From a virus, in the IMG/VR virus record IMGVR_UViG_3300030248_000076, positions 1 through 57,595 of that record: a stretch of DNA of 57,595 nt. The stretch is one strand, 5' to 3'. The notes under the pieces are model-generated. The model was not told the DNA's origin, made no database searches, and worked only from the letters and a program-made list of their open reading frames with translations. The translations under genes were made by a program, and so were the position numbers. Numbering within the stretch: the first letter of the stretch is position 1; each line of letters begins with the position of its first letter. Shown here one piece after another: positions 1 to 57,595 of the stretch.

Positions 1-9
1 CCCCCCCCC
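1..9 (+). repeat. Poly-C homopolymer (9 C) in the 5' end of the glycosyltransferase gene; same tract as 57473-57481
   Basis: Read directly. It lies between upstream ATG codons and the GT25 body. Confidence 0.9.
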
Positions 10-123
10 AACCAACATTCTTCGTTTAGTGGTTAACCTTGATCGCTCGGCCGAGCGCCTAGAATCGATTTCAAAACAACTTTCCGCGCAGGGCCTCTCC
101 TTCCAACGCATCCACGCTATAGA
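1..123. repeat. Terminal direct repeat, copy 1 (identical to 57473-57595); circular-assembly overlap
   Basis: Base-by-base comparison of the window start and end. The repeat cuts through a gene, so it is not a physical genome end. Confidence 0.95.
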
Positions 124-781
124 CGGTCGTAAATTGAGTTCTGAGGAACTCGCCCGGCTAGAGGCCCCCTACGATGCCCCCGAGAAATTCGTCTTCAGAA
201 AAGCGCTGTGGCCAACTGAGATTGCATGCTTCCTATCGCACGCAGCCTGTTGGGAAAAGCTCGTAAAAAGCAACTGCGAATGGGGCTTGATCATGGAGGA
301 CGACATCGTCCTATCGCCCCGCTTCAAGCTGTTCGCTACCTCTTCCGATTGGATTCCTCAAGGGGTCCACGTCATCCAGCTCCACGGGTCCCGTCAAACG
401 TTCACTGTCGGAGAAAACTATCCAGTTCATGACACGGAATTGTTTCGGATCATCCAGCCAACACCGCTTTGCACCTTTGCGTATCTGATTCATCGCGAAG
501 CCGCTGCCTACGCATTAGCTACCTATATGCCGATACCGGCTCCCGTCGACGACTGGCTGTTCTGTCCTTACTCCGACTTCGCGAAACGTTTCCCTCCGCA
601 TAGATTGCTTTCGGCTTGCGTCTGGACGCTTGATGGCCCATCGAACATCGGAGACCGAGCCTGCCGCAGACGCCTACCGACGAGCGTAAAAGTGCGTTTG
701 CTTCGTGCCATCAAGTCCGGTGGCTATCGCCTTACAACGATGTTCCAAAAGAAACGTTCTTTAACGCTGACGCACGATTGA
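29..781 (+). CDS. Glycosyltransferase family 25 (LPS/LOS beta-1,4-galactosyltransferase-like, LgtB/Lic2 type). The GTG-29 start is only the frame limit in the 9-C state.
   Basis: VVNLDRSAERL...IHAIDG...EIACFLSHAACW...LIMEDDIVL matches the LgtB/Lic2-type layout. The frame stays open upstream through the poly-C tract. Confidence 0.8.
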   Translation: MVNLDRSAERLESISKQLSAQGLSFQRIHAIDGRKLSSEELARLEAPYDAPEKFVFRKALWPTEIACFLSHAACWEKLVKSNCEWGLIMEDDIVLSPRFKLFATSSDWIPQGVHVIQLHGSRQTFTVGENYPVHDTELFRIIQPTPLCTFAYLIHREAAAYALATYMPIPAPVDDWLFCPYSDFAKRFPPHRLLSACVWTLDGPSNIGDRACRRRLPTSVKVRLLRAIKSGGYRLTTMFQKKRSLTLTHD

Positions 782-835: not shown

Positions 836-1300
836 TTATGCCCGCTCGTAAGGTCTAGGCCAGAGCTCACACATTGTCCCTACGGACTTTGCAAACGCCT
901 CTTTCAGTTGCTCAAGCGTGACTGTCGCGACCTCGTCGTTTGCCAACACCCAGTCGAAAGACGAGAGCCCTGAAATCTCAGCCGCGCGAATAGCGTTCCC
1001 CATTCTAGTTTGGGCACGCTCTCCACCATCAAAGACCATCCCATCGACCTCGACGAGGATTGCGCCAACCTGCTCAGCTCTCTCGCGCTTTGCTTCTGCG
1101 AGATGCCTTGCCTCCAACTCTTCATCTGGAATCTCAGGCTCATAGCCCGCGACGTAATAGCGTCCATCGTAGGCTTGCTCTACTTCTCCAACTTCCGTAT
1201 AACCCATTGCTTCGAACCACTCGATGTCCTCACCAATGGCAATAAGCACCTCTTTGGTGTTCTCATTTTGAATCTTGTATCTTTGGGTCATAATATTCAC
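836..1300 (-). CDS. Tail fibre assembly chaperone (DUF4376-like)
   Basis: Last gene of the fibre module. Acidic N-terminal half, and the C-terminal ...FDGGERAQTRM...WVLANDEVATVT pattern is typical of Tfa-type chaperones. Confidence 0.6.
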   Translation of the reverse strand: MNIMTQRYKIQNENTKEVLIAIGEDIEWFEAMGYTEVGEVEQAYDGRYYVAGYEPEIPDEELEARHLAEAKRERAEQVGAILVEVDGMVFDGGERAQTRMGNAIRAAEISGLSSFDWVLANDEVATVTLEQLKEAFAKSVGTMCELWPRPYERA

Positions 1301-1923
1301 ATCATTTTATGGAAATAAATCTTGCCTGGATTGCTAACGGTATATGTTTCTCCGGCTCGTACAGGGAGCATCATTGTCGCATTCCCAGGGTATCTGTTTT
1401 GATAGAACTCAAGAATTAAGGCACCGCTGGCTTTGTGTATGACTTTCCCGCCCGTATAGTCACCGCTATTCATATTTTCGAGTCTCAGCCAACCATCTTC
1501 GCTCGGAGTGTAATCCCCTGCACCAATTTGAACGTACGATCCATAGTTAGGCATCATCCGTGCCGTAATAGGAATAGTTACATTCCCATCAGTTCCCGGC
1601 GAAATTCCGTTGACACTACGAACGAGATTGGGCTTACCGCTCACGCCCGTCCAAGGCACCGTATCCGCCGTTCCTGCGGTCTTCGCCTTGGCGTTGATGC
1701 CCAAGTACGTCGAGGCGGCGTCGGCCTTCGTGAGGTACGGTGTCAGGTTGGGTGCGGGTGCCTCGGCCGCCGAAATCGCCCCAATGTTCTTTCGCGCCTG
1801 CGCTTGCTGAGCGGCAGTCAGCGTCTGAGGCGTTAGCAGCACAACCTCATCCTTAAGCGCCAGTTTGGAGAAAAGCTGCTGCTTGAAGTAGGTCAGGCCA
1901 GCCAGATCGAGAAATGAAGCCAT
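1297..1923 (-). CDS. Tail fibre / receptor-binding protein (short fibre)
   Basis: N-terminus MASFLDLAGL is shared with the upstream fibre gene. Overlapping stop/start with the chaperone gene. Confidence 0.6.
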   Translation of the reverse strand: MASFLDLAGLTYFKQQLFSKLALKDEVVLLTPQTLTAAQQAQARKNIGAISAAEAPAPNLTPYLTKADAASTYLGINAKAKTAGTADTVPWTGVSGKPNLVRSVNGISPGTDGNVTIPITARMMPNYGSYVQIGAGDYTPSEDGWLRLENMNSGDYTGGKVIHKASGALILEFYQNRYPGNATMMLPVRAGETYTVSNPGKIYFHKMM

Positions 1924-1942
1924 GAGACTTTTCTCCTAGAGA

Positions 1943-2803
1943 TTAAGCAAAGAGAGCATCAATGTCGGCGGTGGCAACTGCCGTGACGGAGAACGAACCA
2001 CCCAACGGATCCCAAGTCGGCGTATCGCCGCTAGTGCGAGCGACGTTCGTGCCCGCGGGATAGGTCTGACCATCGAGATCAAACGCCGCTTCGATGTTGT
2101 ACGTGTCACCGACAGCCGCATCAGCCGGAAGATCAGTAAAGGTGGCAACCGTGCCCTTCCAAGAAAGCACGCTGGTAAAGTCAGCCTTGAGCGCGTAGCC
2201 CGAAAGATCAATGTTCACGCCCTTGGAGTTGATCGGGAGAGCATTGCCATTGACGCTGACGGCTTCAATGACGTTTGCCTGAGCACCAGCTGCAATGCCT
2301 TCAAGCTTCGCAAAGTCAGCCTTAGACATCAGGCCGTCAGCAGTAGCAGAAGCAAGGCCGTAAGTCGTGTCCTGAGCCGGGATGCCGAGAGCGGTAATGT
2401 CTGCTTTCGTGACAGCCGTAGCGGTCGAAACGGCGCCGGTTTCAGTGACGGTGATCTTGTACAGAGCGGCATCTTCATGAGCTGTATAGGTAGCAGGCTC
2501 ATAGACGACAACTTCCGTACCGTTGATCTTGACGTTGCCGTTGGTCGTAGATTCTTCGACCTTCGTGGCGCCTGCGGCAATGCCGGCAAGCTTGGCGAAA
2601 TCGGCCTTTGACATAAGACCGTCGGCTGTTTCGGTCGCGAGAGAGTAGACCGTGTCCGGAACCGTGAAGGTGCCGAGAACGGCGCCCGAGATGGCGCTGA
2701 GCGTTACTACCTTGCCGGCAATGGAGATACCGCCCGCGGAGACGGCCTTGATTTTGGAGTCGTAGTGGGAAAGACCGGCAAGGTCAAGAAACTGTGTGGC
2801 CAT
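1943..2803 (-). CDS. Tail fibre protein with a repeated ADGLMSKADFAKLxGIAAGA motif
   Basis: N-terminus MATQFLDLAGL. Two copies of a phage fibre repeat motif, and the position is within the fibre module. Confidence 0.65.
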   Translation of the reverse strand: MATQFLDLAGLSHYDSKIKAVSAGGISIAGKVVTLSAISGAVLGTFTVPDTVYSLATETADGLMSKADFAKLAGIAAGATKVEESTTNGNVKINGTEVVVYEPATYTAHEDAALYKITVTETGAVSTATAVTKADITALGIPAQDTTYGLASATADGLMSKADFAKLEGIAAGAQANVIEAVSVNGNALPINSKGVNIDLSGYALKADFTSVLSWKGTVATFTDLPADAAVGDTYNIEAAFDLDGQTYPAGTNVARTSGDTPTWDPLGGSFSVTAVATADIDALFA

Positions 2804-2823
2804 AATTTTCTAATTCCTGGTCG

Positions 2824-3108
2824 TTAAAAAAGGTTGTCAATAAGATTGGTTTGGATCGCGGTGGGCTTGTCGGATTTGATCTTTACGATCTCCTCCGCGT
2901 TTTTGTCGACGCCCGCATCCGTCTGATTAAGTCGCTTTGCCGTGATGAGATCGCCGGGCTGCCAGTTAACGGGATCGTAGGTGTCCTCGGGCACCTCCTC
3001 GTCCGTCACTGCCAATACCTGCGCTCGCACTGCGGGCGTGGCGGCTTTGGTTGAAAGGCGCTTTAAGCTCCGCCTTTCAGGAGCAGAAATGGTCCGAATG
3101 ACGTTCAC
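2824..3108 (-). CDS. Small fibre-module protein, function unknown
   Basis: 94-aa ORF. Its WQPGDLITAKRLNQ motif resembles the N-terminus of the collagen-like protein at 19969-20544. Confidence 0.45.
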   Translation of the reverse strand: MNVIRTISAPERRSLKRLSTKAATPAVRAQVLAVTDEEVPEDTYDPVNWQPGDLITAKRLNQTDAGVDKNAEEIVKIKSDKPTAIQTNLIDNLF

Positions 3109-3125
3109 ATTGCTTCTCTCCTCTC

Positions 3126-4160
3126 TTAGTTAAAGACTGAGTCAATTTCTTCTTCGGTCATTGGCGTGAACGATGAGGCCGCGTCTTCGGCGCGTTTTGC
3201 GGCATCTTCTGCATCCGTGGCGGATTGGGCCGCAGCTTCTTCTGATTTCCCGGCATTAGTTTCGGAAGTTGTGGCGGCGTCCTCACTCAACTTGGCAGCC
3301 TCCGCGGATTTCTCTGCCGCAGAAGCGGCGCTAGTGGCGGTTGTGGCCGATGTTTCTGCGCCCGAGGCACTTGCTTTGGCCTGCTCCGCGTACCATTTGG
3401 CGGAATATTCGTATCCATCAACGGTGTAATCGAGCGGCGCCGTTGGGTCGTCAGGATCTTCTGTCCCAGTCGTCCACGTCGCCCACTTCTTCGCCAAGTC
3501 CGCGTTTGCGGATGACTGACTAGCGCTAGATGCTGAATCCTGTGCAGACGTTTTGGCATTGTTCGCTTGAGTGGTGGCCTCGTCTTTCAAAGTCGTCATG
3601 ACTTCAATGGCCGCCTCGGTATCTACAACCGCCTGCTGCGCTATTTGTTTGGCTTCGCTCGCGGTAGTTTGCGCATCGCTCGCAACGTTTACTGCGTGAT
3701 TCGCTGCATCAAGCGCCGAACCGGCGGTAGTAACCGCGTCGGTTGACAACTCAAGAGCTGAATCTGCCGTGGTAACCGCGGTGTCGGCTGTCTTTATGGC
3801 TGTTTCGCTGTTTGCCTTCGCCTCATTTGCCGTTGATACCGCCGTTGCAGAATTCGACTCGGCAGTAGTGATTCGCTCATTCCACGAATTCACCACAGTG
3901 GTCAAAGAGGTCACCTGACTCAGAGCTGAATTGGCTGTATTGACTGCCGCGGAGGCCGCAGACTGCGCTGAGTCGGCGGTGGTGAGCGCCTGATTGGCAA
4001 TTCTTAGTGCTTCTTCGGTATTTGCGACGATCTGGTACGTGTACTCTCCGACCTCGTTAATCGCATCTTCGGTCTGAGTCAGGACGCTTTGACCGTCAAT
4101 TGTCCCGACTGAGTTCCGAACGTAATGGAACTGGAACTTTTTCGTATCAGCAGAGGCCAT
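3126..4160 (-). CDS. Ala/Thr/Ser-rich fibrous tail fibre protein
   Basis: Low-complexity coiled/fibrous sequence plus a KWATW...YSAKWYAEQAKASA fibre-type motif. Follows the terminator after the main fibre. Confidence 0.6.
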   Translation of the reverse strand: MASADTKKFQFHYVRNSVGTIDGQSVLTQTEDAINEVGEYTYQIVANTEEALRIANQALTTADSAQSAASAAVNTANSALSQVTSLTTVVNSWNERITTAESNSATAVSTANEAKANSETAIKTADTAVTTADSALELSTDAVTTAGSALDAANHAVNVASDAQTTASEAKQIAQQAVVDTEAAIEVMTTLKDEATTQANNAKTSAQDSASSASQSSANADLAKKWATWTTGTEDPDDPTAPLDYTVDGYEYSAKWYAEQAKASASGAETSATTATSAASAAEKSAEAAKLSEDAATTSETNAGKSEEAAAQSATDAEDAAKRAEDAASSFTPMTEEEIDSVFN

Positions 4161-4183
4161 TTGCGCCCTCTAGGAAAATTGGT

Positions 4184-4209
4184 AATAAAAAAGGCCGATT
4201 TCTCGGCCT
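4184..4209 (-). terminator. Intrinsic terminator after the tail-fibre/invertible region
   Basis: Stem aggccga/tcggcct with a 4-nt loop, followed on the minus strand by TTTTTTATT. Confidence 0.75.
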
Positions 4210-4232
4210 GTTTGAATCTTTTTTGTTGAGTG

Positions 4233-4251
4233 AGATTCCATCACACACCCA
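4233..4251. repeat. 19-bp inverted repeat, left copy (agattccatcacacaccca)
   Basis: Exact reverse complement of 4989-5007. Same codon phase (IPSHTH) in both fibre tips. Confidence 0.9.
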
Positions 4252-4618
4252 TTCGGGCGCTACGGGCAGCGCCGGCTCGCATTCTCATAATCGCGGGACC
4301 ATGAATATCACCGGCAAAATTTTGGGATGCAACGAAGAAGATGCCTATCCGGGTGCCGAAGGGGCGTTTTACCGAGACGGGATGTCGTCAGGCGGCAAAG
4401 GCGGCTTTTCTGACTACAACATTTCGTTTGATGCGTCGCGTACTTGGACCGGATCAACCAACTCAACGGGGTCGCATACGCACTCGTTGTCCCTCGATGC
4501 AACAGGCGGAGGAAAGGGACATACGCACTCCCTTACAGGTGAATCGCACAGCCACAAGATCAGCCTGCCCCTTCCTCCATTTTTTAAGTTGGCTTTCTTT
4601 GTGAAGCTCCCCGAATAA
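4235..4618 (+). other. Silent, promoterless alternative tail-fibre C-terminal cassette (127 aa)
   Basis: IPSHTHSGATGS...PLPPFFKLAFFVKLPE is homologous to the last 128 aa of the fibre at 4619-5674. No start codon or RBS of its own; the upstream part of the tracked ORF runs through a terminator. Confidence 0.8.
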
Positions 4619-5674
4619 TTACTCGGGCAACTTCACGAAATATGCGAGCTTGAAAAACGGCGGCAGCGGAAGATCAATTGCATGCGAGTGTGAGGCGCCA
4701 TCAAGCGAATGTGAGTGCCCTTTGCCGCCACCGGTATTGTTTAGCGACATCGTGTGTGAGTGCGATCCAGCCGCACTGGTTGAACCTGTCCAATTTCGAG
4801 CGGCGCTGAAAGAGCATTTGAACGAAGCATTTTCTGAGTCTCGATTGTCACTGTTTGGGCATGTTCCGTTTGAATAAAACGCGCCTTCAACGTAACTGAT
4901 TTTGTGATCGTCAACGGGGAAGGAACCAGTGATATCCATTGTCCCGCGCGTGTGAGTGTGTCTCCCTGCCGGGGATGTTGAGCCGCTGTGGGTGTGTGAT
5001 GGAATCTGATCAATCGAGAGAATCGTTTCACCGACCGTACCGGCAATTTTCGCCTCAGCGGTCGTGACATTTTGGGAGCCTCCCGTTGCACCGGATTCAT
5101 CTACGGTTGACGGCAAAATGAACTTGCCTACGAGGTTCGGAACGGTACCGCCCAAACCATCATCGCCGCCGTCACACAGCACATAGCGCTCATCTGCAAC
5201 ACTCTCGCCCCAAGGAATCAAGCGGCGCCCATCAGAACCGCCCAGCTTGCAGTTGTAGAAGGGCGTGATCTGCCCCGCGATGACGCTGGGAGCATCCATG
5301 TTTTTCCACACGGTTTTATCACTGCCGGGTGCTACTGCGGTGGTGCTGGGCCCATTGGCCACAAGGCACCTAAACTTTTGAGAACCCTGAAAAACTTCGT
5401 TGCCGGGCTCATAGTCAAGCACAGCGGAATATTTCATGATGCCGCCCTGTTGGTACCAGACGAGAAATTGCGACAAGAGGAAGAGGGCCCCGTTGAAGTC
5501 TTCGCGCTTCGGCGGGATGCCGCCCTCGCCGATCGGCATGGCGTTGACGGGGCCGAAGCCCACTTCTTGCGAGAAGCGGCCCGTACCTGCCTCCATCGCG
5601 GTGCTCGGCGGGATCGTCTTGTCGCCGCTTTCGGCGATCGCCGCCGTCAGAAAGTGTTGAGGATATTTGCTCAT
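4619..5674 (-). CDS. Tail fibre protein with an HxH-repeat C-terminal tip
   Basis: Start MSKYPQHF chosen over the longer tracked ORF. Conserved fibre N-domain, and a tip with SHTHS/RHTHT/SHSHT/GHSHS/SHSHA motifs. Confidence 0.8.
   Translation of the reverse strand: MSKYPQHFLTAAIAESGDKTIPPSTAMEAGTGRFSQEVGFGPVNAMPIGEGGIPPKREDFNGALFLLSQFLVWYQQGGIMKYSAVLDYEPGNEVFQGSQKFRCLVANGPSTTAVAPGSDKTVWKNMDAPSVIAGQITPFYNCKLGGSDGRRLIPWGESVADERYVLCDGGDDGLGGTVPNLVGKFILPSTVDESGATGGSQNVTTAEAKIAGTVGETILSIDQIPSHTHSGSTSPAGRHTHTRGTMDITGSFPVDDHKISYVEGAFYSNGTCPNSDNRDSENASFKCSFSAARNWTGSTSAAGSHSHTMSLNNTGGGKGHSHSLDGASHSHAIDLPLPPFFKLAYFVKLPE
4989..5007. repeat. 19-bp inverted repeat, right copy, inside the expressed fibre gene
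   Basis: tgggtgtgtgatggaatct is the reverse complement of 4233-4251. Confidence 0.9.
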
Positions 5675-5733
5675 GATTCCCCTGAAAAAAAGCAAACCCC
5701 GGAAGGTGTGATTCTTCCGGGGTTCGATGCCCA

Positions 5734-6384
5734 TTAAGGTTTCCTATGCGATAGCCTGCTTGGCTTTGCCAGATCTTCTCCTGACCACCTCAGCTTGACG
5801 GCCCTCTGATACACAATCCAGTAAGACAGCCCTGTCATTTCTGAGATTTCCGAGATCGTTCTCTTCTTCCCTCTGAAATAGATGCGTAAGGTTTTCGATC
5901 GGTTGTTCGAGTTCTCCTTCCGTGTGACCCATTGACAATTCTGAGGACTGTATCCCTTGTCGTTGTCTATGCGGTCAATCTCTAGATCATCACTGTACCC
6001 AGACGCATCAGCCCACCGCTTGAAAGACAAAAAGTCTTCTTTCCACTCCTCGCAGACGGTGATTCCTCTTCCGCCGTACCGAGAGAACTCCTTGTGGACG
6101 GGCCTGTAGCATCGGTTTTTCATGGCGCACCAAATCGAATAGATCCTCGGCCTGTTTGTCCGAGAGCCGAACCCGTGCGTCATTAAGCGGTCTCTTGCCT
6201 TTTCGCTGTGATAGCAACCGCAAGACTTCGTGTTGCCGCTCTTCAAAGATGGGCCGTAAACATCTAGCTCATTCCCGCAGTCACACACGCAGTGCCACCT
6301 GACGCGACCAGAGGAGGTTCGCTCCCCTTCCCTTGTCACCGTGAGACGCCCAAAGCGCTGCCCAAAGAGATCATCTTTCCGCAT
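5734..6384 (-). CDS. Free-standing HNH homing endonuclease (HNH_3-like) with a C-terminal HTH
   Basis: GRLTV...RWHCVCDCGN...SCGC zinc motif, LEIDRIDNDKGYSPQNCQWVTRKENSNN HNH motif. Inserted between baseplate and fibre genes. Confidence 0.8.
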   Translation of the reverse strand: MRKDDLFGQRFGRLTVTREGERTSSGRVRWHCVCDCGNELDVYGPSLKSGNTKSCGCYHSEKARDRLMTHGFGSRTNRPRIYSIWCAMKNRCYRPVHKEFSRYGGRGITVCEEWKEDFLSFKRWADASGYSDDLEIDRIDNDKGYSPQNCQWVTRKENSNNRSKTLRIYFRGKKRTISEISEMTGLSYWIVYQRAVKLRWSGEDLAKPSRLSHRKP

Positions 6385-25464: not shown

Positions 25465-28400
25465 TTACCGTAGGCCAAGTGCCGTTAGATTGTTCGGATG
25501 AATTTTTCGAACGGTGCCTCGGCTCATATCAGCCAAAGCCTGACTCATGCTGTCGATTTGATCGTCGTGAGCCCCTGCCGGGAAACTGAGCAGTTCTGGT
25601 ATGAAATCCTTTGCCACCCACGGATAAAGACCTGCCGGCGGAAGAAAGACGTTCTTTGCCTCCCAGAGCGGCGTGACCGCGGCCGCGCGAGCCTCTTTGG
25701 ACTCCTTCGGATTGATTGGGATGAGCCCTGAAACATGCTTTTTCAGCGTCGCGATAACAGCGGCGCCGTTTGCCTTTTCTTCCACGAGCTTTCGAAGTAC
25801 TCGCGGCCACTTTTCGGCGCAAGCAACGAACTGTTCCACCGTTTTTACAAAGTCCCACTGACCTCGATACTGATCAAGCAAGTAGAAGTTCGCGCCTTTG
25901 CGCCCCCACACCTGCCCAACGACATAGTCAGATCGTTCGGAACCCTTGAACGTCATATCCCACGAAATACACGTGGCATCGAACGTCTTTGGAAGCGTTG
26001 CGCTGTCCCAATGCTGAATCCAATCTTCTTTAAAGAGTCCGCCGCCGTCGGGCACTGGATGCTGCTGATAAAGCGCAGCCCAGTCACGGGAGCCGACCTG
26101 CTTTTGAATGCGAAGCAGCGCATTGAGGTCATAGCGTTCGGGGTGCAAAGCCTCGCCGGCCTTACGGTGCGGTTCGTCGTGTTCGGCAATGGCGGGATAG
26201 TTGATGACGCGCCACTGCTCGCCTTCGCCGGATGCTGCACGGTCAAGCAAGCGACCGACCAGATCATCGCAATTGTGAGTAGGCATCAAGCTTTTACCAA
26301 CTAGATAGATGCCGTCAACTGCGCTAGTTGTTATGCACCTACCCCACCCAGCTTCTTTAGAACTGGCCTTCCTGAAATGTACTTGCCGTTCTTTTGCTCG
26401 AATCGCTTTGCACCGCTTGTACTCCACCTTGCACGGTATGTCTACTGTTGGAGAAAAGCTGAAACGGTTGCAATCGTAATTTCGTTCATATCCGTCTTTT
26501 GCAATCGTCCCTTTGCGGTTAACAACCTCTCTGTTGTTGCAAAGCATACCGAGCGACGAAACTAAATCCTTTACGTCGGAGTACAGCCGTTCGTCGCTGT
26601 TTGCGAATCGCTGAATGTTGTTGGTTTTATCGCCGTCAGAATCAATAAGGCCAGCCAATAACGCCAAACGGTCCTCTATAGACGCGTGTAAGTAGCATCT
26701 AGGTATGTGCTTGTTAAACAGAACACCTAGTTTGACCAACTTTCCTCGAAGTCCTTGATGTCGATACCGATAGCAGTAATTGCCTACCTTATCCGTATAT
26801 CGCGTAAACGAATACGGCGTACTTTCGCAATGTGCCGTATAAGCATGTCCGCATCGAATATCGGGGCCGCTTTTCGAACCATCCCCCAGCCACAAACCAA
26901 ACCAATACGGATCAATTGGGAGGGGTTCGTTTTCTCCAAAATCTAGCGGATCAGGCCGAGGGAGAGTTCTCTGCCTGTCGTCGAGCAGGTTTCCGGCCTC
27001 TTTCAGAACGTAATTATGGGTCGGCCTGCTTTTGACCGGCCATAAATGCTTTGATCCGCAAATAACCGTTTCCGTTCGCGTTTCGACGGCAACATCACAC
27101 CAAACCGGTTCGCAAACGTGCGTAACCTCGACCGGCCTTCCGTCCATCCCGAAAACCCTATCGCCTACCTGAAGGTCGCCATGTCGTTTCCATCCTGCAA
27201 GCGTAAGTACGGGCGTATCGTCCTTAATGGGGTGCCAGCGTGTGCACATCACGATCACGCCGCCACCAGGAGATAAGCGCGTATATGCCGTCGACGTGTA
27301 CCAGTCCCAAAGCGCTTCTCGAATCGTCGCAGAATTCGCGTCGCGTCGATCTTTAATTGCGTCGTCGATAACCAAGCAATCAGCGCCCATGCCTGTAATG
27401 CCTCCGCCGACACCGGCGGCGCGGTAGGCGCCCTTATGCCCAACGATTTCAAAGAGCTCTGCGGTTCGAATGAATGAGCCGAAAGAGGTCTTTACGTTCT
27501 TTGAGTTGAGCGATGTTTCAGGGAAGATCTCGGCGTACTTTGGATCGTCGATCTTGCGCTGTACGTCACGCGAGAAACGTTGCGTCAGATCTGCTGAATA
27601 CGACGTCGCAATGATTTGAAGGTCTGGATACAGCCCAAATGCATACGCCGGAAAAGATCGAGAAACGATTTCGCTATTGTGCGTAGCAACAAAGGTTTTA
27701 CCTATTACATATAGACCATCTTCTGAATCAACTTGAATACAGTTGCCTATCTTTGGACTCTCGAGCTGCTTGACCGCAACGATCGCGTGCCTCTTTTCCT
27801 TCCGCACTCTGGTCGTTTTTTTACGCATCAAACGACACGGTATTGACTTTGTCGGGAAAAAACTAACCGTGTATACAGAGCGCTTTCCAACGATGCCGCT
27901 AGTACTCGTGGTCGGGTCAATCTTTCTAATATGAGCCGTTTCTCCGATTAAACGAATAACCTCAGCAACATCAAGAGCAAGCTTTTCTGATACGGTTGAA
28001 AAAACATATCTGCCATTGACAAACGTGCCATCGGTGTCCATCAGCCCTGCGATTAGTTCCCTCAAATTGCTTTCTGAGTCGAACTTGTATTCGTCGGGCA
28101 CATATTTCCCGTCGAACAATCTCAATCGCTTCATGTCCGCAGAAAACTTATTCCGACGCCGTGGTACTCCGCTCGCGAATGAAAACGTAACAACACCTGT
28201 AGTTGAGTGCTCCCATTCCCCCGTTATCGGCACCCCCAACTTTTCAAATGCATCCTTAACAACCATGGCATCAAGAGGTGTCATATTTATTCTTGGCGAA
28301 CTAGATGTACCATCTCCAAGCCATACACCAAGGCAATACGGCGGCAGGATGTGTTGGACCTCTTCAAACTGTAAGGGGTTTACTCTATCAATTTGATACA

Positions 28401-28974
28401 GGTATCTTCCGCCGCGCTTCCCCATTAGCCCCGTTGTTAAGCTGATGGGCTTCCCTGTTCTGGGGGAAGGTTCTATCAAGCATCTTGTTTCGACGGTTTT
28501 GTACTTTGCCTGCGGACGAGAATAAATTGTCCATTCATGATCTAAATGAACGGCAAACCTTTCGCCTGTCGACACCTCTACCTCATGAGAGGCAATGTTT
28601 TTAGGGCCTATTGCAATAACTCGAACCGGCTTCCCTGACGGAGAAAAAACTTCGTCTCCCACCTTAAGCTCTCCGTGGGTTCTCCAGCCTTTCGTCGTCA
28701 ATACCGGCGTGCTGTCTGCGCACAGCTTCCCACTTCTGGGCGGCATGCAGATGATGAGCCTCGGCGATTTCTTATCTGCGATGTCTTGCAGAAAACCGTC
28801 AAGCTCTTCGCAGATTTCGCGATGTACCCACCCCATTTGGTATCCGGGAGTGGTTTCAAGAACAAAATTCGAAAGACTTTGACGCGCTGCGCGGATTCTA
28901 AGCTCATGACGCGCAGCGAGAATCAGAGCCCTATCGATCTTCTCCTTCATTTTCGGGGAACTCCATACGAGCAA
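25465..28974 (-). CDS. terL: Terminase large subunit precursor containing two inteins (mature extein about 499 aa)
   Basis: Walker A PPRSGK|S, Walker B CLVIDD, TRWH|CDDL, and a C-terminal nuclease ending AGAHDDQIDSMSQAL. The more likely start is MKEKIDR at 28950, which has a GGAG RBS. Confidence 0.9.
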   Translation of the reverse strand: MLVWSSPKMKEKIDRALILAARHELRIRAARQSLSNFVLETTPGYQMGWVHREICEELDGFLQDIADKKSPRLIICMPPRSGKLCADSTPVLTTKGWRTHGELKVGDEVFSPSGKPVRVIAIGPKNIASHEVEVSTGERFAVHLDHEWTIYSRPQAKYKTVETRCLIEPSPRTGKPISLTTGLMGKRGGRYLYQIDRVNPLQFEEVQHILPPYCLGVWLGDGTSSSPRINMTPLDAMVVKDAFEKLGVPITGEWEHSTTGVVTFSFASGVPRRRNKFSADMKRLRLFDGKYVPDEYKFDSESNLRELIAGLMDTDGTFVNGRYVFSTVSEKLALDVAEVIRLIGETAHIRKIDPTTSTSGIVGKRSVYTVSFFPTKSIPCRLMRKKTTRVRKEKRHAIVAVKQLESPKIGNCIQVDSEDGLYVIGKTFVATHNSEIVSRSFPAYAFGLYPDLQIIATSYSADLTQRFSRDVQRKIDDPKYAEIFPETSLNSKNVKTSFGSFIRTAELFEIVGHKGAYRAAGVGGGITGMGADCLVIDDAIKDRRDANSATIREALWDWYTSTAYTRLSPGGGVIVMCTRWHPIKDDTPVLTLAGWKRHGDLQVGDRVFGMDGRPVEVTHVCEPVWCDVAVETRTETVICGSKHLWPVKSRPTHNYVLKEAGNLLDDRQRTLPRPDPLDFGENEPLPIDPYWFGLWLGDGSKSGPDIRCGHAYTAHCESTPYSFTRYTDKVGNYCYRYRHQGLRGKLVKLGVLFNKHIPRCYLHASIEDRLALLAGLIDSDGDKTNNIQRFANSDERLYSDVKDLVSSLGMLCNNREVVNRKGTIAKDGYERNYDCNRFSFSPTVDIPCKVEYKRCKAIRAKERQVHFRKASSKEAGWGRCITTSAVDGIYLVGKSLMPTHNCDDLVGRLLDRAASGEGEQWRVINYPAIAEHDEPHRKAGEALHPERYDLNALLRIQKQVGSRDWAALYQQHPVPDGGGLFKEDWIQHWDSATLPKTFDATCISWDMTFKGSERSDYVVGQVWGRKGANFYLLDQYRGQWDFVKTVEQFVACAEKWPRVLRKLVEEKANGAAVIATLKKHVSGLIPINPKESKEARAAAVTPLWEAKNVFLPPAGLYPWVAKDFIPELLSFPAGAHDDQIDSMSQALADMSRGTVRKIHPNNLTALGLR
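26272..27231 (-). mobile_element. Intein 2 (320 aa, residues 582-901) with a LAGLIDADG endonuclease, inserted in the TRWH/DDL motif
   Basis: PIKDDTPVLTLAGWKRHGDLQVGDRV...KHLW...YWFGLWLGDGS...LLAGLIDSDGD...GRCITT...MPTHN|C. Confidence 0.85.
27676..28725 (-). mobile_element. Intein 1 (350 aa, residues 84-433) with a LAGLIDADG endonuclease, inserted in the Walker A P-loop
   Basis: LCADSTPVLTTKGWRTHGELKVGDEV...DHEW...YCLGVWLGDGT...LIAGLMDTDGT...GNCIQV...VATHN|S. Confidence 0.85.
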
Positions 28975-52625: not shown

Positions 52626-52672
52626 CGCCCCCGGGAGTCCTGATGATCAGCTCCCGGGGGCGAAGTTTTTTT
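52626..52672 (+). terminator. Strong intrinsic terminator ending the early operon
   Basis: 12-bp stem cgcccccgggag/ctcccgggggcg plus 4 inner pairs, then TTTTTTT. Confidence 0.85.
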
Positions 52673-52679
52673 GCGGATA

Positions 52680-52936
52680 GTGGGGCAAAGTGTGGGGCAA
52701 TTTTCTGAGACGCCCCGCTCGCCCAATGAATGCGGGAAAGTCCTCATACTCAGATGTTCTAAACCCCACCCCGAGAGCAGTCCGCGATTCATCCGTGAAT
52801 CCCCCGCACTTCCCCGCGCGGGCGCCGATATACTCGGAAGAGCCCGCGCACATACCGCAGATCGGCCGGTTTTGCCCCGCAACTCGTCGCGTCTTCGTGT
52901 GGGGCAATTGGTGGGGCAAAGTTCTCTCTGCCCCAC
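52680..52936. promoter_or_regulatory. attP region with arm-type repeats GTGGGGCAA
   Basis: Direct copies at 52680, 52692, 52899 and 52911. Inverted near-copies at 52872-52880 and 52928-52936. Confidence 0.6.
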
Positions 52937-52940
52937 TCTT

Positions 52941-54158
52941 ATGCCTCCCGCTCAAAAAGTCACCGCGAAGTCCGCCCTCACGCTCCCGGATGGACGCTAC
53001 CTCGTCGAGCCGCAGCTCTATCTCGTCGTCCGCCGCGGCGGACTCTCCCGGACCTACTTCATCCGCTACACCCTAGACGGCCGCCGGCGCGATTTCAGCC
53101 TTGGAAGTGCAAAGGACAAAACCCTCGCGGTCGTCAAGGCCGAAGCCGCGCAGGTCCGATCGCTCCTCGCGCGCGGGATCGACCCGAAGGACGCCCGCGA
53201 CCGGGAGCGCGCCGAACGCGCCCGTCCACTCGTCCCGACCTTTGCAGAGTACGTCCCCGGGGCACTTGATGAGCTGAAGCATTTGAGACACTGGGCGGAG
53301 CGCTCCGCATGGACGTATCAGGCGCTCGCGAACATCGCGCTCCGCGATGCGGGATTCGCGTCCCGCCGCCTTGACGAAATCACGGTCGAGAACGTCAAGG
53401 ACTTCCTCACAGGCGTTTGGGATCAGTACAAAAACGCGCACCACTTGCGCGGGCTTTTGGAGATGATCTTCACGCTCGCGCGCCGCGACGGCTTCATGAC
53501 GATCCCGAATCCCGCGCTATGGCGTGGGAACCTCGACGCCTACCTGCCCCTCAAGACGAAAGAGCGCCGCCCAGAGCACTTTCACGCGATCTCACTTGAC
53601 GCGCTCCGGGACGCGCTCCGGGTGCTCATCACGGGGGAGTGTCAGAGCGATCCGGCAATCATCTTCCTCGCCCTCACCGCATGCCGGCGTGATGAGGTGC
53701 TTTTCATGCGATGGAGCGAAGTGGACTTCGATACGCGCACCTTCTCCGTGCCGCCCGAGCGCCGAAAGGACCGTCGGCCCGAGCCGCACGTCGTGCCGCT
53801 CTCAGATCAAGCCCTTGCGCTCCTCGCGCACTGGAAAAAAACTCGGGCCTCACTGCTTTGCGACCGGCGATTTGCCTCCAGGCGTCTAAAAAAAGTCTCA
53901 GGAGACGAAGACGCCACTCTGCACGGAATGCGATCAACTTTTCGTGACTGGTGCGCAGAGACCGGAAAGGATCCGATCCTTGCTGAGAAGTCGCTTATGC
54001 ATGCGACCGGCAACGCCGTCCAGCAGGCATATCAGAGAAGCGACCTGCTTGAGCAGCGACGTCCGCTCATGCAGGCGTGGGCAGACACGATTCTGCCCAT
54101 GGATACGCTAAAAGAAGTTCTGCCAGAAAGTATGAATACTCCGACGGAAAAGTATTGA
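52941..54158 (+). CDS. int: Tyrosine integrase, P4-like (DUF4102 N-domain)
   Basis: Start MPPAQKV. DGRYLV...LYLVVRRGGLSRTYFIRY N-domain, and C-terminal R...HGMRSTFRDW...Y catalytic motifs. Confidence 0.9.
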   Translation: MPPAQKVTAKSALTLPDGRYLVEPQLYLVVRRGGLSRTYFIRYTLDGRRRDFSLGSAKDKTLAVVKAEAAQVRSLLARGIDPKDARDRERAERARPLVPTFAEYVPGALDELKHLRHWAERSAWTYQALANIALRDAGFASRRLDEITVENVKDFLTGVWDQYKNAHHLRGLLEMIFTLARRDGFMTIPNPALWRGNLDAYLPLKTKERRPEHFHAISLDALRDALRVLITGECQSDPAIIFLALTACRRDEVLFMRWSEVDFDTRTFSVPPERRKDRRPEPHVVPLSDQALALLAHWKKTRASLLCDRRFASRRLKKVSGDEDATLHGMRSTFRDWCAETGKDPILAEKSLMHATGNAVQQAYQRSDLLEQRRPLMQAWADTILPMDTLKEVLPESMNTPTEKY

Positions 54159-57085: not shown

Positions 57086-57298
57086 TCACCCCATAAGACG
57101 AGCGACGTAAAAGCCAGCGGCGAATCCGACCACTGTCATGACGCCCGCAACGCTTCCCCAAAAGACGCGCGTCTTGCGACGCGTCTCCGCATCGAGCAGA
57201 GCCTTCTGGGCCTCAACCTTGGCGATGAGCTCGTCCGTCACTTCCTCGACCTTGACGCCGAGCTTGTCGAGCCATTCCTTCACTTCTTCTTTCGTCAT
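57086..57298 (-). CDS. Small C-terminally anchored membrane protein (lysis accessory?)
   Basis: Start MTKEEVKEW with an AAGGAG RBS, preferred over the tracked start at 57355, which has no RBS and overlaps a terminator. Confidence 0.5.
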   Translation of the reverse strand: MTKEEVKEWLDKLGVKVEEVTDELIAKVEAQKALLDAETRRKTRVFWGSVAGVMTVVGFAAGFYVARLMG

Positions 57299-57354
57299 TT
57301 CAGTCACCTTCTCCTTCAGCGCCTCTTTCAGCGCCTTGACAATAAAATTCCACA

Positions 57355-57379
57355 TAAGAAAAAACCGCCTAAAGGCGGT
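57355..57379 (-). terminator. Hairpin terminator immediately upstream of the lysis cassette
   Basis: Stem accgcc/ggcggt, loop taaa, followed on the minus strand by TTTTTTCTT. Confidence 0.55.
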
Positions 57380-57456
57380 GTGATAAAGTTATGTATACGT
57401 ACCATGCTCATGGGTGAGCCAACAACCGTGAGCCATTTTTTGCACCCATATCAAAC

Positions 57457-57595
57457 ATGTTTCAAGATGTCACCCCCCCCCAACCAACATTCTTCGTTTA
57501 GTGGTTAACCTTGATCGCTCGGCCGAGCGCCTAGAATCGATTTCAAAACAACTTTCCGCGCAGGGCCTCTCCTTCCAACGCATCCACGCTATAGA
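57457..57595 (+). other. 5' end of the GT25 gene across the circular junction: ATG 57457 (in frame if 10 C), ATG 57467 and 57403 (in frame if 8 C)
   Basis: Hand translation of all three frames through the tract at 57473-57481. Confidence 0.7.
57473..57595. repeat. Terminal direct repeat, copy 2
   Basis: Identical to 1-123. Confidence 0.95.

Follow-up and report, generated by a model that had tools for sequence, protein, structure and literature searches.

Can a run of one base on a temperate phage decide whether a glycosyltransferase is made in its bacterial host? The question is raised by a viral DNA of 57,595 nt (IMG/VR record IMGVR_UViG_3300030248_000076), analysed over its whole length and here called the window. 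At the 5' end of its gene for a family 25 glycosyltransferase (GT25), a putative enzyme of lipooligosaccharide (LOS) or lipopolysaccharide (LPS) synthesis, stands an uninterrupted run of nine C. An original prediction, made from the sequence alone, proposed that the gene is OFF at nine C and is opened by ATG-led frames at 8 or 10 C. Our analysis indicates that the GT25 gene most likely flips on and off at random, and we consider it likely that this is a repeat-tract contingency locus on a temperate myovirus of Sutterella wadsworthensis. We are surer still that the tract really is hypermutable and that the frame in which a functional gene is read depends on its length; its service as an adaptive LOS phase-variation switch we judge probable, with rather less assurance.

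The poly-C tract and the frames it sets

The window is a circular contig whose first 123 bp repeat its last 123, leaving 57472 unique bases, and this overlap begins exactly at the first C of the tract. Direct reading and comparison of the overlap confirm that the nine C at 57473-57481 and those at 1-9 are the same tract. It is the sole homopolymer of at least nine bases across the 57-kb window, where every other C or G run is shorter than seven, and dinucleotide-preserving shuffles give an expectation of 0.15 C9 runs per window by chance. The tract begins 16 nt past the ATG at 57457, i.e., a repeat long enough to slip lies inside the 5' coding region of the GT25 gene. The features that bear on its reading are as follows.

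57473..57481 (duplicated at 1-9), plus strand: poly-C tract, the putative hypermutable element; read in frame, it encodes the proline run of a disordered N-terminal tail
1..123, no strand: terminal overlap of the circular assembly, identical to 57473-57595
57457..57459, plus strand: primary (apparently ancestral) start ATG, in frame with the GT25 body at 7, 10, 13 or 16 C
57467..57469, plus strand: secondary ATG, in frame with the GT25 body at 8, 11, 14 or 17 C; possibly a weaker or alternative ON start
57404..57406, plus strand: upstream ATG (MLMGEPTT...), sharing the frame of ATG 57467; as a start, not conserved
29..781, plus strand: GT25 body callable at 9 C, from GTG 29 to TGA 779-781; the full gene spans the junction, from 57457 to 781

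At 9 C, the GT25 frame (GTG 29 to the stop at 779-781) is open upstream only as far as 57432 and holds no ATG, GTG or TTG ahead of GTG 57501 (= 29), which bears out the claim that the body has no in-frame upstream ATG at this length. Read at 9 C, ATG 57457 yields MFQDVTPPQPTFFV and stops after 14 codons, and ATG 57467 yields MSPPPNQHSSFSG and stops after 13, within the limit of about 15 codons given for both. The former joins the GT25 frame at 10 C and the latter at 8 C, and translations of every allele show that tract length shifts the gene between in-frame and out-of-frame. The upstream ATG had been placed at 57403, one base off its true position of 57404-57406; its assignment to the frame of ATG 57467 was correct.

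The two candidate starts nearest the tract differ in their conservation. At the primary start, ATGTTTCAAGATGT is nearly invariant across lineages, and the changes seen in ATG-TTT-CAA-GAT-GTT-ACC are synonymous in the frame of ATG 57457 (GTT to GTC in the window; GAT to GAC in L016, L017 and L064). ATG 57467 is lost in sublineages, where it reads ATA (L001, L002, L033) or ACG (L016, L017, L064) within the codons GATATT or GACGTT, and it appears to be a by-product of conserved Asp-Val codons in the primary frame. As for ATG 57404, the leader T6 run (57435-57440) is T5 in the lineage at 89% protein identity (L010, L011), which shifts this ATG into the third frame; a long open reading frame (ORF) then runs from the upstream ATG even at 9 C (P0003, 290 aa).

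Homologues of the phage gene that lack the C run, 76-78% identical to it, are chromosomal and lie in the LOS-core cluster of Sutterella. Their N-termini (M-L-N-D-V-V-D-S-N-D-I-L-R-L... and M-L-G-N-D-V-L-T-N-N-G-I-L-R-L...) align with M-F-Q-D-V-T-P-P-(P)-T-N-I-L-R-L, which marks ATG 57457 as the ancestral start, and one chromosomal gene is collinear with the allele of 7 C. Since the start of these tract-less paralogues corresponds to ATG 57457 by homology, frame A (7, 10 or 13 C) appears to be the ancestral ON frame; the prediction of an ON state at 10 C thereby stands and extends to 7 and 13 C. Frame C (9, 12 or 15 C, including the 9 C of the window) appears to be OFF, with no usable in-frame start in this lineage. 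Frame B (8, 11, 14 or 17 C) may be a weaker or alternative ON state, i.e., the predicted joining of ATG 57467 to the gene at 8 C holds, and the ON state claimed for that length is plausible rather than secured, this ATG being lost in sublineages.

Tract length among related phage copies

If the tract is hypermutable, otherwise identical copies of the gene should differ in its length. We retrieved copies blind to their state, by scanning IMG/VR with a protein pattern and metagenome contigs with a DNA pattern, and together with the window and the isolate genome these made 21 near-identical copies, with tracts of 7 C (five copies), 8 C (three), 9 C (six), 10 C (five), 11 C (one) and 13 C (one). 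Over the 800 bp downstream, a stretch that holds the whole gene, 18 of the 20 relatives show zero mismatches with the window. Contigs fetched via called proteins add tracts of 9, 10, 11, 12 and 15 C, and the six prolines of one called protein (P0053) imply 17 C. Across 44 near-identical copies, from the S. wadsworthensis genome and human-gut metagenomes, the tract is 7-13 or 15 C long, and 62 contig pairs among them have at most two mismatches over at least 1.3 kb yet differ in tract length. The comparison of relatives that the original prediction called for thus finds not one length but 7, 8, 9, 10, 11, 12, 13 or 15 C with 0-2 mismatches over at least 1.3 kb, i.e., alleles that are otherwise identical are polymorphic in tract length. 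In the lineages at 83-89% protein identity, too, the length varies, here between 6 and 12 C, and no phage lineage has fewer than 6 C.

Could the variation be an artefact? Homopolymers are error-prone on some platforms, several of the contigs have low coverage (~4-7x, from their NODE names), and the isolate genome may be an older assembly, so that the true tract might be fixed and both the variation and the OFF frame might be products of sequencing or assembly error. Such error would be expected to give lengths of +/-1, and the lengths found span 7 to 15. Each recurs in independent assemblies made by different assemblers (at least 15 contigs have 10 C, at least 11 have 9 C and at least four have 11 C; the assemblies compared comprise MEGAHIT k141, SPAdes NODE contigs, Logan and scaffolded sets of metagenome-assembled genomes (MAGs)), and no other position in the 1.3-kb flanks is comparably variable. 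Moreover, the gene calls on tens to hundreds of contigs include all three frame states. The spread of lengths, their recurrence and the silent flanks rule out sequencing error as the main cause, and we regard a fixed tract as very improbable.

The assemblies themselves give a further hint. Contigs end less than 200 nt from the tract in 5 of 29 linear relatives, against 0.87 expected (Poisson P ~0.002), and the window's own break is also at the tract. The original prediction had read that break as a sign of length heterogeneity; the added breaks strengthen this point, which remains suggestive, and fit within-sample heterogeneity of length, as k-mer assemblers behave. Among the contigs listed for P0041, P0043 and P0044, no sample common to two states was found.

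All frame states are common, as expected of a switching locus. In a protein index of public assemblies, the 250-aa OFF-type product with the window's exact sequence occurs in 244 blocks, the 11-C allele in 60 and the 10-C allele in 30, although these block numbers are not comparable like for like since the ON alleles are split over many exact sequences.

The cluster at 89% identity (P0056-P0068) also contains interrupted or rearranged tracts, with N-termini that read MFQDITPNQ, MLPPPSTN, MLPPPSSTN, MLPPPPKKNQ, MLPTPTN and MFQDITPPLTN. Interrupted variants of this kind (PPLTN, PSSTN, PPPPKKNQ) make the site a general hotspot for indels and substitutions.

The enzyme, its start codon and its cassette

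A switch requires a functional gene to act on. The predicted identity of the product as a family 25 glycosyltransferase is upheld by a significant match to PF01755 over the whole domain (E = 1.3e-27; 97.4 bits against a cut-off of 24; profile positions 4-197 of 199), and NCBIfam gave no family match for the protein. Across 16-17 homologues, some of them as little as 25% identical, an acidic E105-D106-D107 (EDD) motif does not vary, nor do several other residues. An AlphaFold model was made of P0002, a real 10-C allele at 89% identity, and its core is confidently predicted (predicted local distance difference test, pLDDT, >90). The best matches of the model in the PDB are the bacterial GT25 beta-1,4-galactosyltransferases 8xkd, 8xgx, 8xlz and 8xc8 (E = 3e-9), with human COLGALT1 also among the best, and the same PDB entries are matched by sequence as well. 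Motif and model together give a GT-A fold with a DXD-type motif for metal and nucleotide-sugar binding. Strand beta-1 is predicted at residues 12-18 (pLDDT ~92), and residues 1-8, which hold the variable prolines, are disordered (pLDDT <50) and not conserved, so that a change of one proline should be tolerated.

The ratio of nonsynonymous to synonymous substitution rates (dN/dS) is 0.10-0.20 between phage lineages and 0.06-0.14 between the phage gene and a chromosomal paralogue, which points to a functional gene under purifying selection. We considered a pseudogene and rejected it on the dN/dS values and the intact gene bodies. An action on the LOS/LPS core is suggested indirectly, by the paralogues in the core cluster.

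A hypermutable tract might still be without functional effect, either because translation starts downstream of it, at GTG-29 or at a TTG at -9, or because the gene is a decaying passenger. GTG-29 does open an intact 250-aa ORF that passes gene calling (P0041, on 139 contigs), it shares the lack of a Shine-Dalgarno sequence with the ATGs, and OFF-type alleles are very common. The product of GTG-29 would, however, lose I12-L15, four of the seven residues of predicted strand beta-1, and the first five positions of the Pfam domain; the claim that the ATG-led N-terminus supplies the first beta-strand thus agrees with the predicted structure. Neither fallback start is conserved, as GTG-29 is GTA in the lineage at 83% identity and the TTG at -9 is TTA in the window's own lineage. 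The ILRL codons between the tract and GTG-29 differ between lineages synonymously only, which indicates that they are translated. Because of the truncated strand, the GTA codon and the synonymous changes, GTG-29 appears to be a poor tract-independent start, and a start of that kind, which the original prediction had named as fatal to its proposal, is not upheld. Decay, in turn, is argued against by the dN/dS of 0.1-0.2 and by the lack of any other disruption in dozens of copies, and all phage lineages retain at least 6 C, whereas the chromosomal paralogues lack the tract. We therefore think it unlikely that the tract has no effect.

A graded switch with three states deserves more weight, though we hold it tentatively and would not bet on it. 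Here two frames would give enzyme from different ATGs, and the length of the proline run would tune translation through elongation factor P (EF-P). ATG 57467 and ATG 57404 are both in frame at 8, 11, 14 or 17 C, such alleles are common (P0043 in 60 blocks; P0046-48 also occur), and a shorter or longer tail should be tolerated where the first eight residues are disordered and not conserved. Polyproline needs EF-P, and polyproline stalling is established biochemistry, so ON output may depend on the length of the run. On the other side, some sublineages have lost the second ATG and yet vary in tract length, the frame of the upstream ATG is not conserved, and neither has a Shine-Dalgarno sequence. 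A three-state switch is compatible with a contingency locus and would refine it, not replace it.

Where did the gene come from? The cluster of the chromosomal paralogues comprises GT9 (the heptosyltransferase family) and GT25 genes followed by GT90/GT2/GT4 genes, and is flanked by a Na/Ala symporter gene and valS. The phage gene appears to derive from this host LOS-core GT25, with a C run that would have taken the place of three or four ordinary codons once the gene was on the phage. One chromosomal paralogue (L040 5686-6489, on a Sutterella sp. metagenome scaffold) carries an in-frame TGG to TAG nonsense change (YEWAL to YE*AL); the same allele occurs in a MAG contig (L041/L028) and is called as pieces of 101 and 162 aa (P0026). 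Some Sutterella strains would accordingly lack the chromosomal enzyme, which the phage copy could in principle replace.

The phage gene lies in a cassette with sharp borders: homology between phage backgrounds starts at a hairpin and ends at the GT25 stop codon. Three further features describe its surroundings.

57364..57379, minus strand: intrinsic-terminator-like hairpin with a T-run; left cassette boundary, where homology to the other background (L018) begins
57381..57389, plus strand: TGATAAAGT, an extended -10-like motif (TGnTAAAGT); candidate promoter with a leader of ~60 nt, proposed from its conservation
836..1300, minus strand: last gene of the tail-fibre block (DUF4376, with tail-fibre PHROG matches), convergent with the GT25 gene

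Just after the hairpin, GTGATAAAGTTA is invariant in all five aligned lineages despite divergent flanks, and TGATAAAGT is a putative extended -10 promoter of the cassette. The cassette is also found in a second, otherwise unrelated phage background (L018-L020; L018 ~2640-2700), again beside tail-fibre genes. It has the properties of a moron, i.e., a discrete insert, dispensable for the phage cycle, in the genome of a temperate phage, with a presumed promoter of its own.

Just upstream of the cassette, an 89-aa ORF (57086-57355, minus strand) without a Pfam or PHROG match stands ahead of the holin and endolysin genes. Phages that are otherwise near-identical diverge in its upstream half (~74 mismatches per 400 bp, against none in the GT25 gene), which suggests a recombination boundary next to the cassette.

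The window as a whole is a temperate myovirus, with genes for an integrase (52671-54158), a CI-like repressor, a RecT-like protein, terminase, portal, sheath, tape measure, baseplate, holin and endolysin, and with tail fibres at 836-5734 on the minus strand. The GT25 gene is the sole plus-strand gene between the tail-fibre block and the lysis block. Both parts of the earlier description, a temperate phage and a gene convergent with the late operon, are thus correct: integrase and CI-like repressor are present, and the gene faces the tail-fibre end. An integrated copy, with 100% protein identity and a tract assembled as 8 C, lies in a 365-kb supercontig of S. wadsworthensis 2_1_59BFAA, and many related contigs of more than 100 kb come from human-gut assemblies; S. 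wadsworthensis is a common betaproteobacterium of the human gut. A blastn search of the window's GT25 end against phage GenBank returned only a 69-bp match at chance level, i.e., no described relative in that collection. Elsewhere in the window, the large terminase ORF (25465-28974, minus strand; 1169 aa) holds Terminase_6N (435-584) and Terminase_6C (1003-1147) domains together with LAGLIDADG_3 (304-368) and Hom_end homing-endonuclease (757-813) domains, which suggests one or two inteins or homing-endonuclease insertions.

The proposed switch and its known counterparts

The switch that we propose would work as follows. A moron cassette of ~0.9 kb, made up of the hairpin, the putative extended -10 promoter, a leader of ~60 nt and a host-derived GT25 gene, sits in the phage, in whose copy the codons just past the start became a poly-C run. 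Slippage of the polymerase at replication would lengthen or shorten this run by one base or a few, far more often than substitutions arise. With 7, 10 or 13 C, ATG 57457 would be in frame and yield a full-length enzyme with two, three or four prolines in its disordered tail. With 9, 12 or 15 C, there would be no usable start in frame, both ATG frames would stop after 13-14 codons, and the gene would be OFF. With 8, 11, 14 or 17 C, the second, non-conserved ATG would be in frame, possibly giving an alternative or weaker ON state. Lysogen populations would then be mixed for one LOS sugar addition.

Several points weigh against this proposal. A two-hexamer sigma-70 scan found no match near the GT25 gene, i.e., no canonical promoter. 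Most genes of the phage have a Shine-Dalgarno match, but no candidate start of GT25 does; the original prediction had noted the weakness at both ATGs. Because the lack is common to all the starts, this test does not discriminate between them, and translation of the gene is probably weak and independent of a Shine-Dalgarno sequence. CCC-C runs permit some +1 slippage of tRNA-Pro, and transcriptional slippage is also possible, so the OFF state may leak by either route. In the unbiased sample, the frame counts A:B:C are 11:4:6 for the near-identical lineage (P = 0.16) and 18:8:8 for all lineages (P = 0.053), which shows no clear selection for or against any state. Finally, the variation seen is variation between samples, from which fast, reversible switching within a clone is deduced. 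Within-clone reversibility is thus something we infer, as are the promoter, the LOS acceptor and the selective benefit.

The benefit itself is a matter of speculation, with superinfection exclusion, or masking of a receptor against antibody or other phage pressure, as candidates suggested by the position of the cassette next to the tail-fibre genes, and evasion of antibodies as a further one. The locus could be a phage-encoded form of bet-hedging that gates the phage's own receptor (superinfection exclusion) under pressure from antibody or competing phages, possibly with three expression states. Whether the phage captured a host LOS-core glycosyltransferase and then evolved the tract, so that the prophage and not the chromosome makes random LOS heterogeneity in a gut commensal, is a broader proposal to which we give slightly less than even credence. 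If it is true, commensals can receive bet-hedging switches of their surface antigens ready-made from temperate phages. The locus is widespread (hundreds of index blocks from public gut assemblies), and the state of the tract could be read from existing metagenomic reads and related to host, time and phage activity.

Phase variation of LOS transferases by repeat tracts is textbook knowledge for Neisseria, Haemophilus, Campylobacter and Helicobacter, as a chromosomal trait of pathogens. In Neisseria lgtA, lgtC and lgtD (poly-G) and lgtG (poly-C), and in poly-G/C genes of Campylobacter and Helicobacter, slippage of a homopolymer in the coding region switches LOS or LPS transferases. The lic2A gene belongs to the same CAZy family, GT25, and also has its repeat tract at the 5' end of the reading frame. 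In Haemophilus influenzae, lic2A carries CAAT repeats, of which 10 give ON and 11 or 12 give OFF (PMC6479036), and multiple functional initiation codons have been described for it (Dixon et al. 2007, as cited in PMC6479036). In its proposed mechanism, the Sutterella phage gene resembles this phase-variable LOS galactosyltransferase, which is turned ON or OFF by repeat number. It differs in that lic2A is a chromosomal gene of a Pasteurellaceae pathogen with a tetranucleotide repeat, whereas here a C run lies in a temperate-phage cassette of a gut betaproteobacterial commensal.

Repeat tracts in Neisseria have been surveyed (PMC5084427), and poly-G genes of Campylobacter are another example (PMC8437040). 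The lgt genes and their Campylobacter and Helicobacter counterparts share with our proposal the slippage of a coding homopolymer as the switch of an LOS transferase. In contrast to the phage gene, they are chromosomal, belong to the large phasomes of small-genome pathogens and fall mostly in other glycosyltransferase families. To our knowledge, phage-borne phase-varying modification of LPS is known only under epigenetic control, in the gtr operons of Salmonella.

The phage-borne gtrABC genes of P22 and Salmonella modify LPS in lysogenic conversion and are phase-variable by an epigenetic transcriptional switch involving Dam and OxyR (PMC2909390). They are alike in being phase-variable conversion genes of a temperate phage that modify LPS. 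They differ in using three membrane components, GtrA, GtrB and GtrC, that act on O-antigen in the periplasm, whereas the enzyme here would be a single cytoplasmic GT-A protein under a translational tract switch. Between the 89-aa ORF and the tail-fibre-associated gene stands a single GT25 gene and not a three-gene GtrA/GtrB/GtrC arrangement, the rest of the window not having been scanned for gtr.

Prophage DNA methyltransferase genes of Bibersteinia trehalosi with (CAAG)12 (PMC4996451) are likewise a case of a simple sequence repeat inside the 5' coding region of a prophage gene. There, the product is a methyltransferase and not a surface-modifying enzyme, and neither length variation nor expression was shown. 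In the literature searched, whose coverage is incomplete, we found no description of phase variation in S. wadsworthensis and no report of a phage-borne, tract-switched LOS transferase, and a 2025 review of phase variation makes no mention of prophages. Set beside these systems, what appears new here is the combination of two known ideas: a prophage cassette that bears a hypermutable tract, which would have arisen after the gene was copied from the core-LOS cluster of the host.

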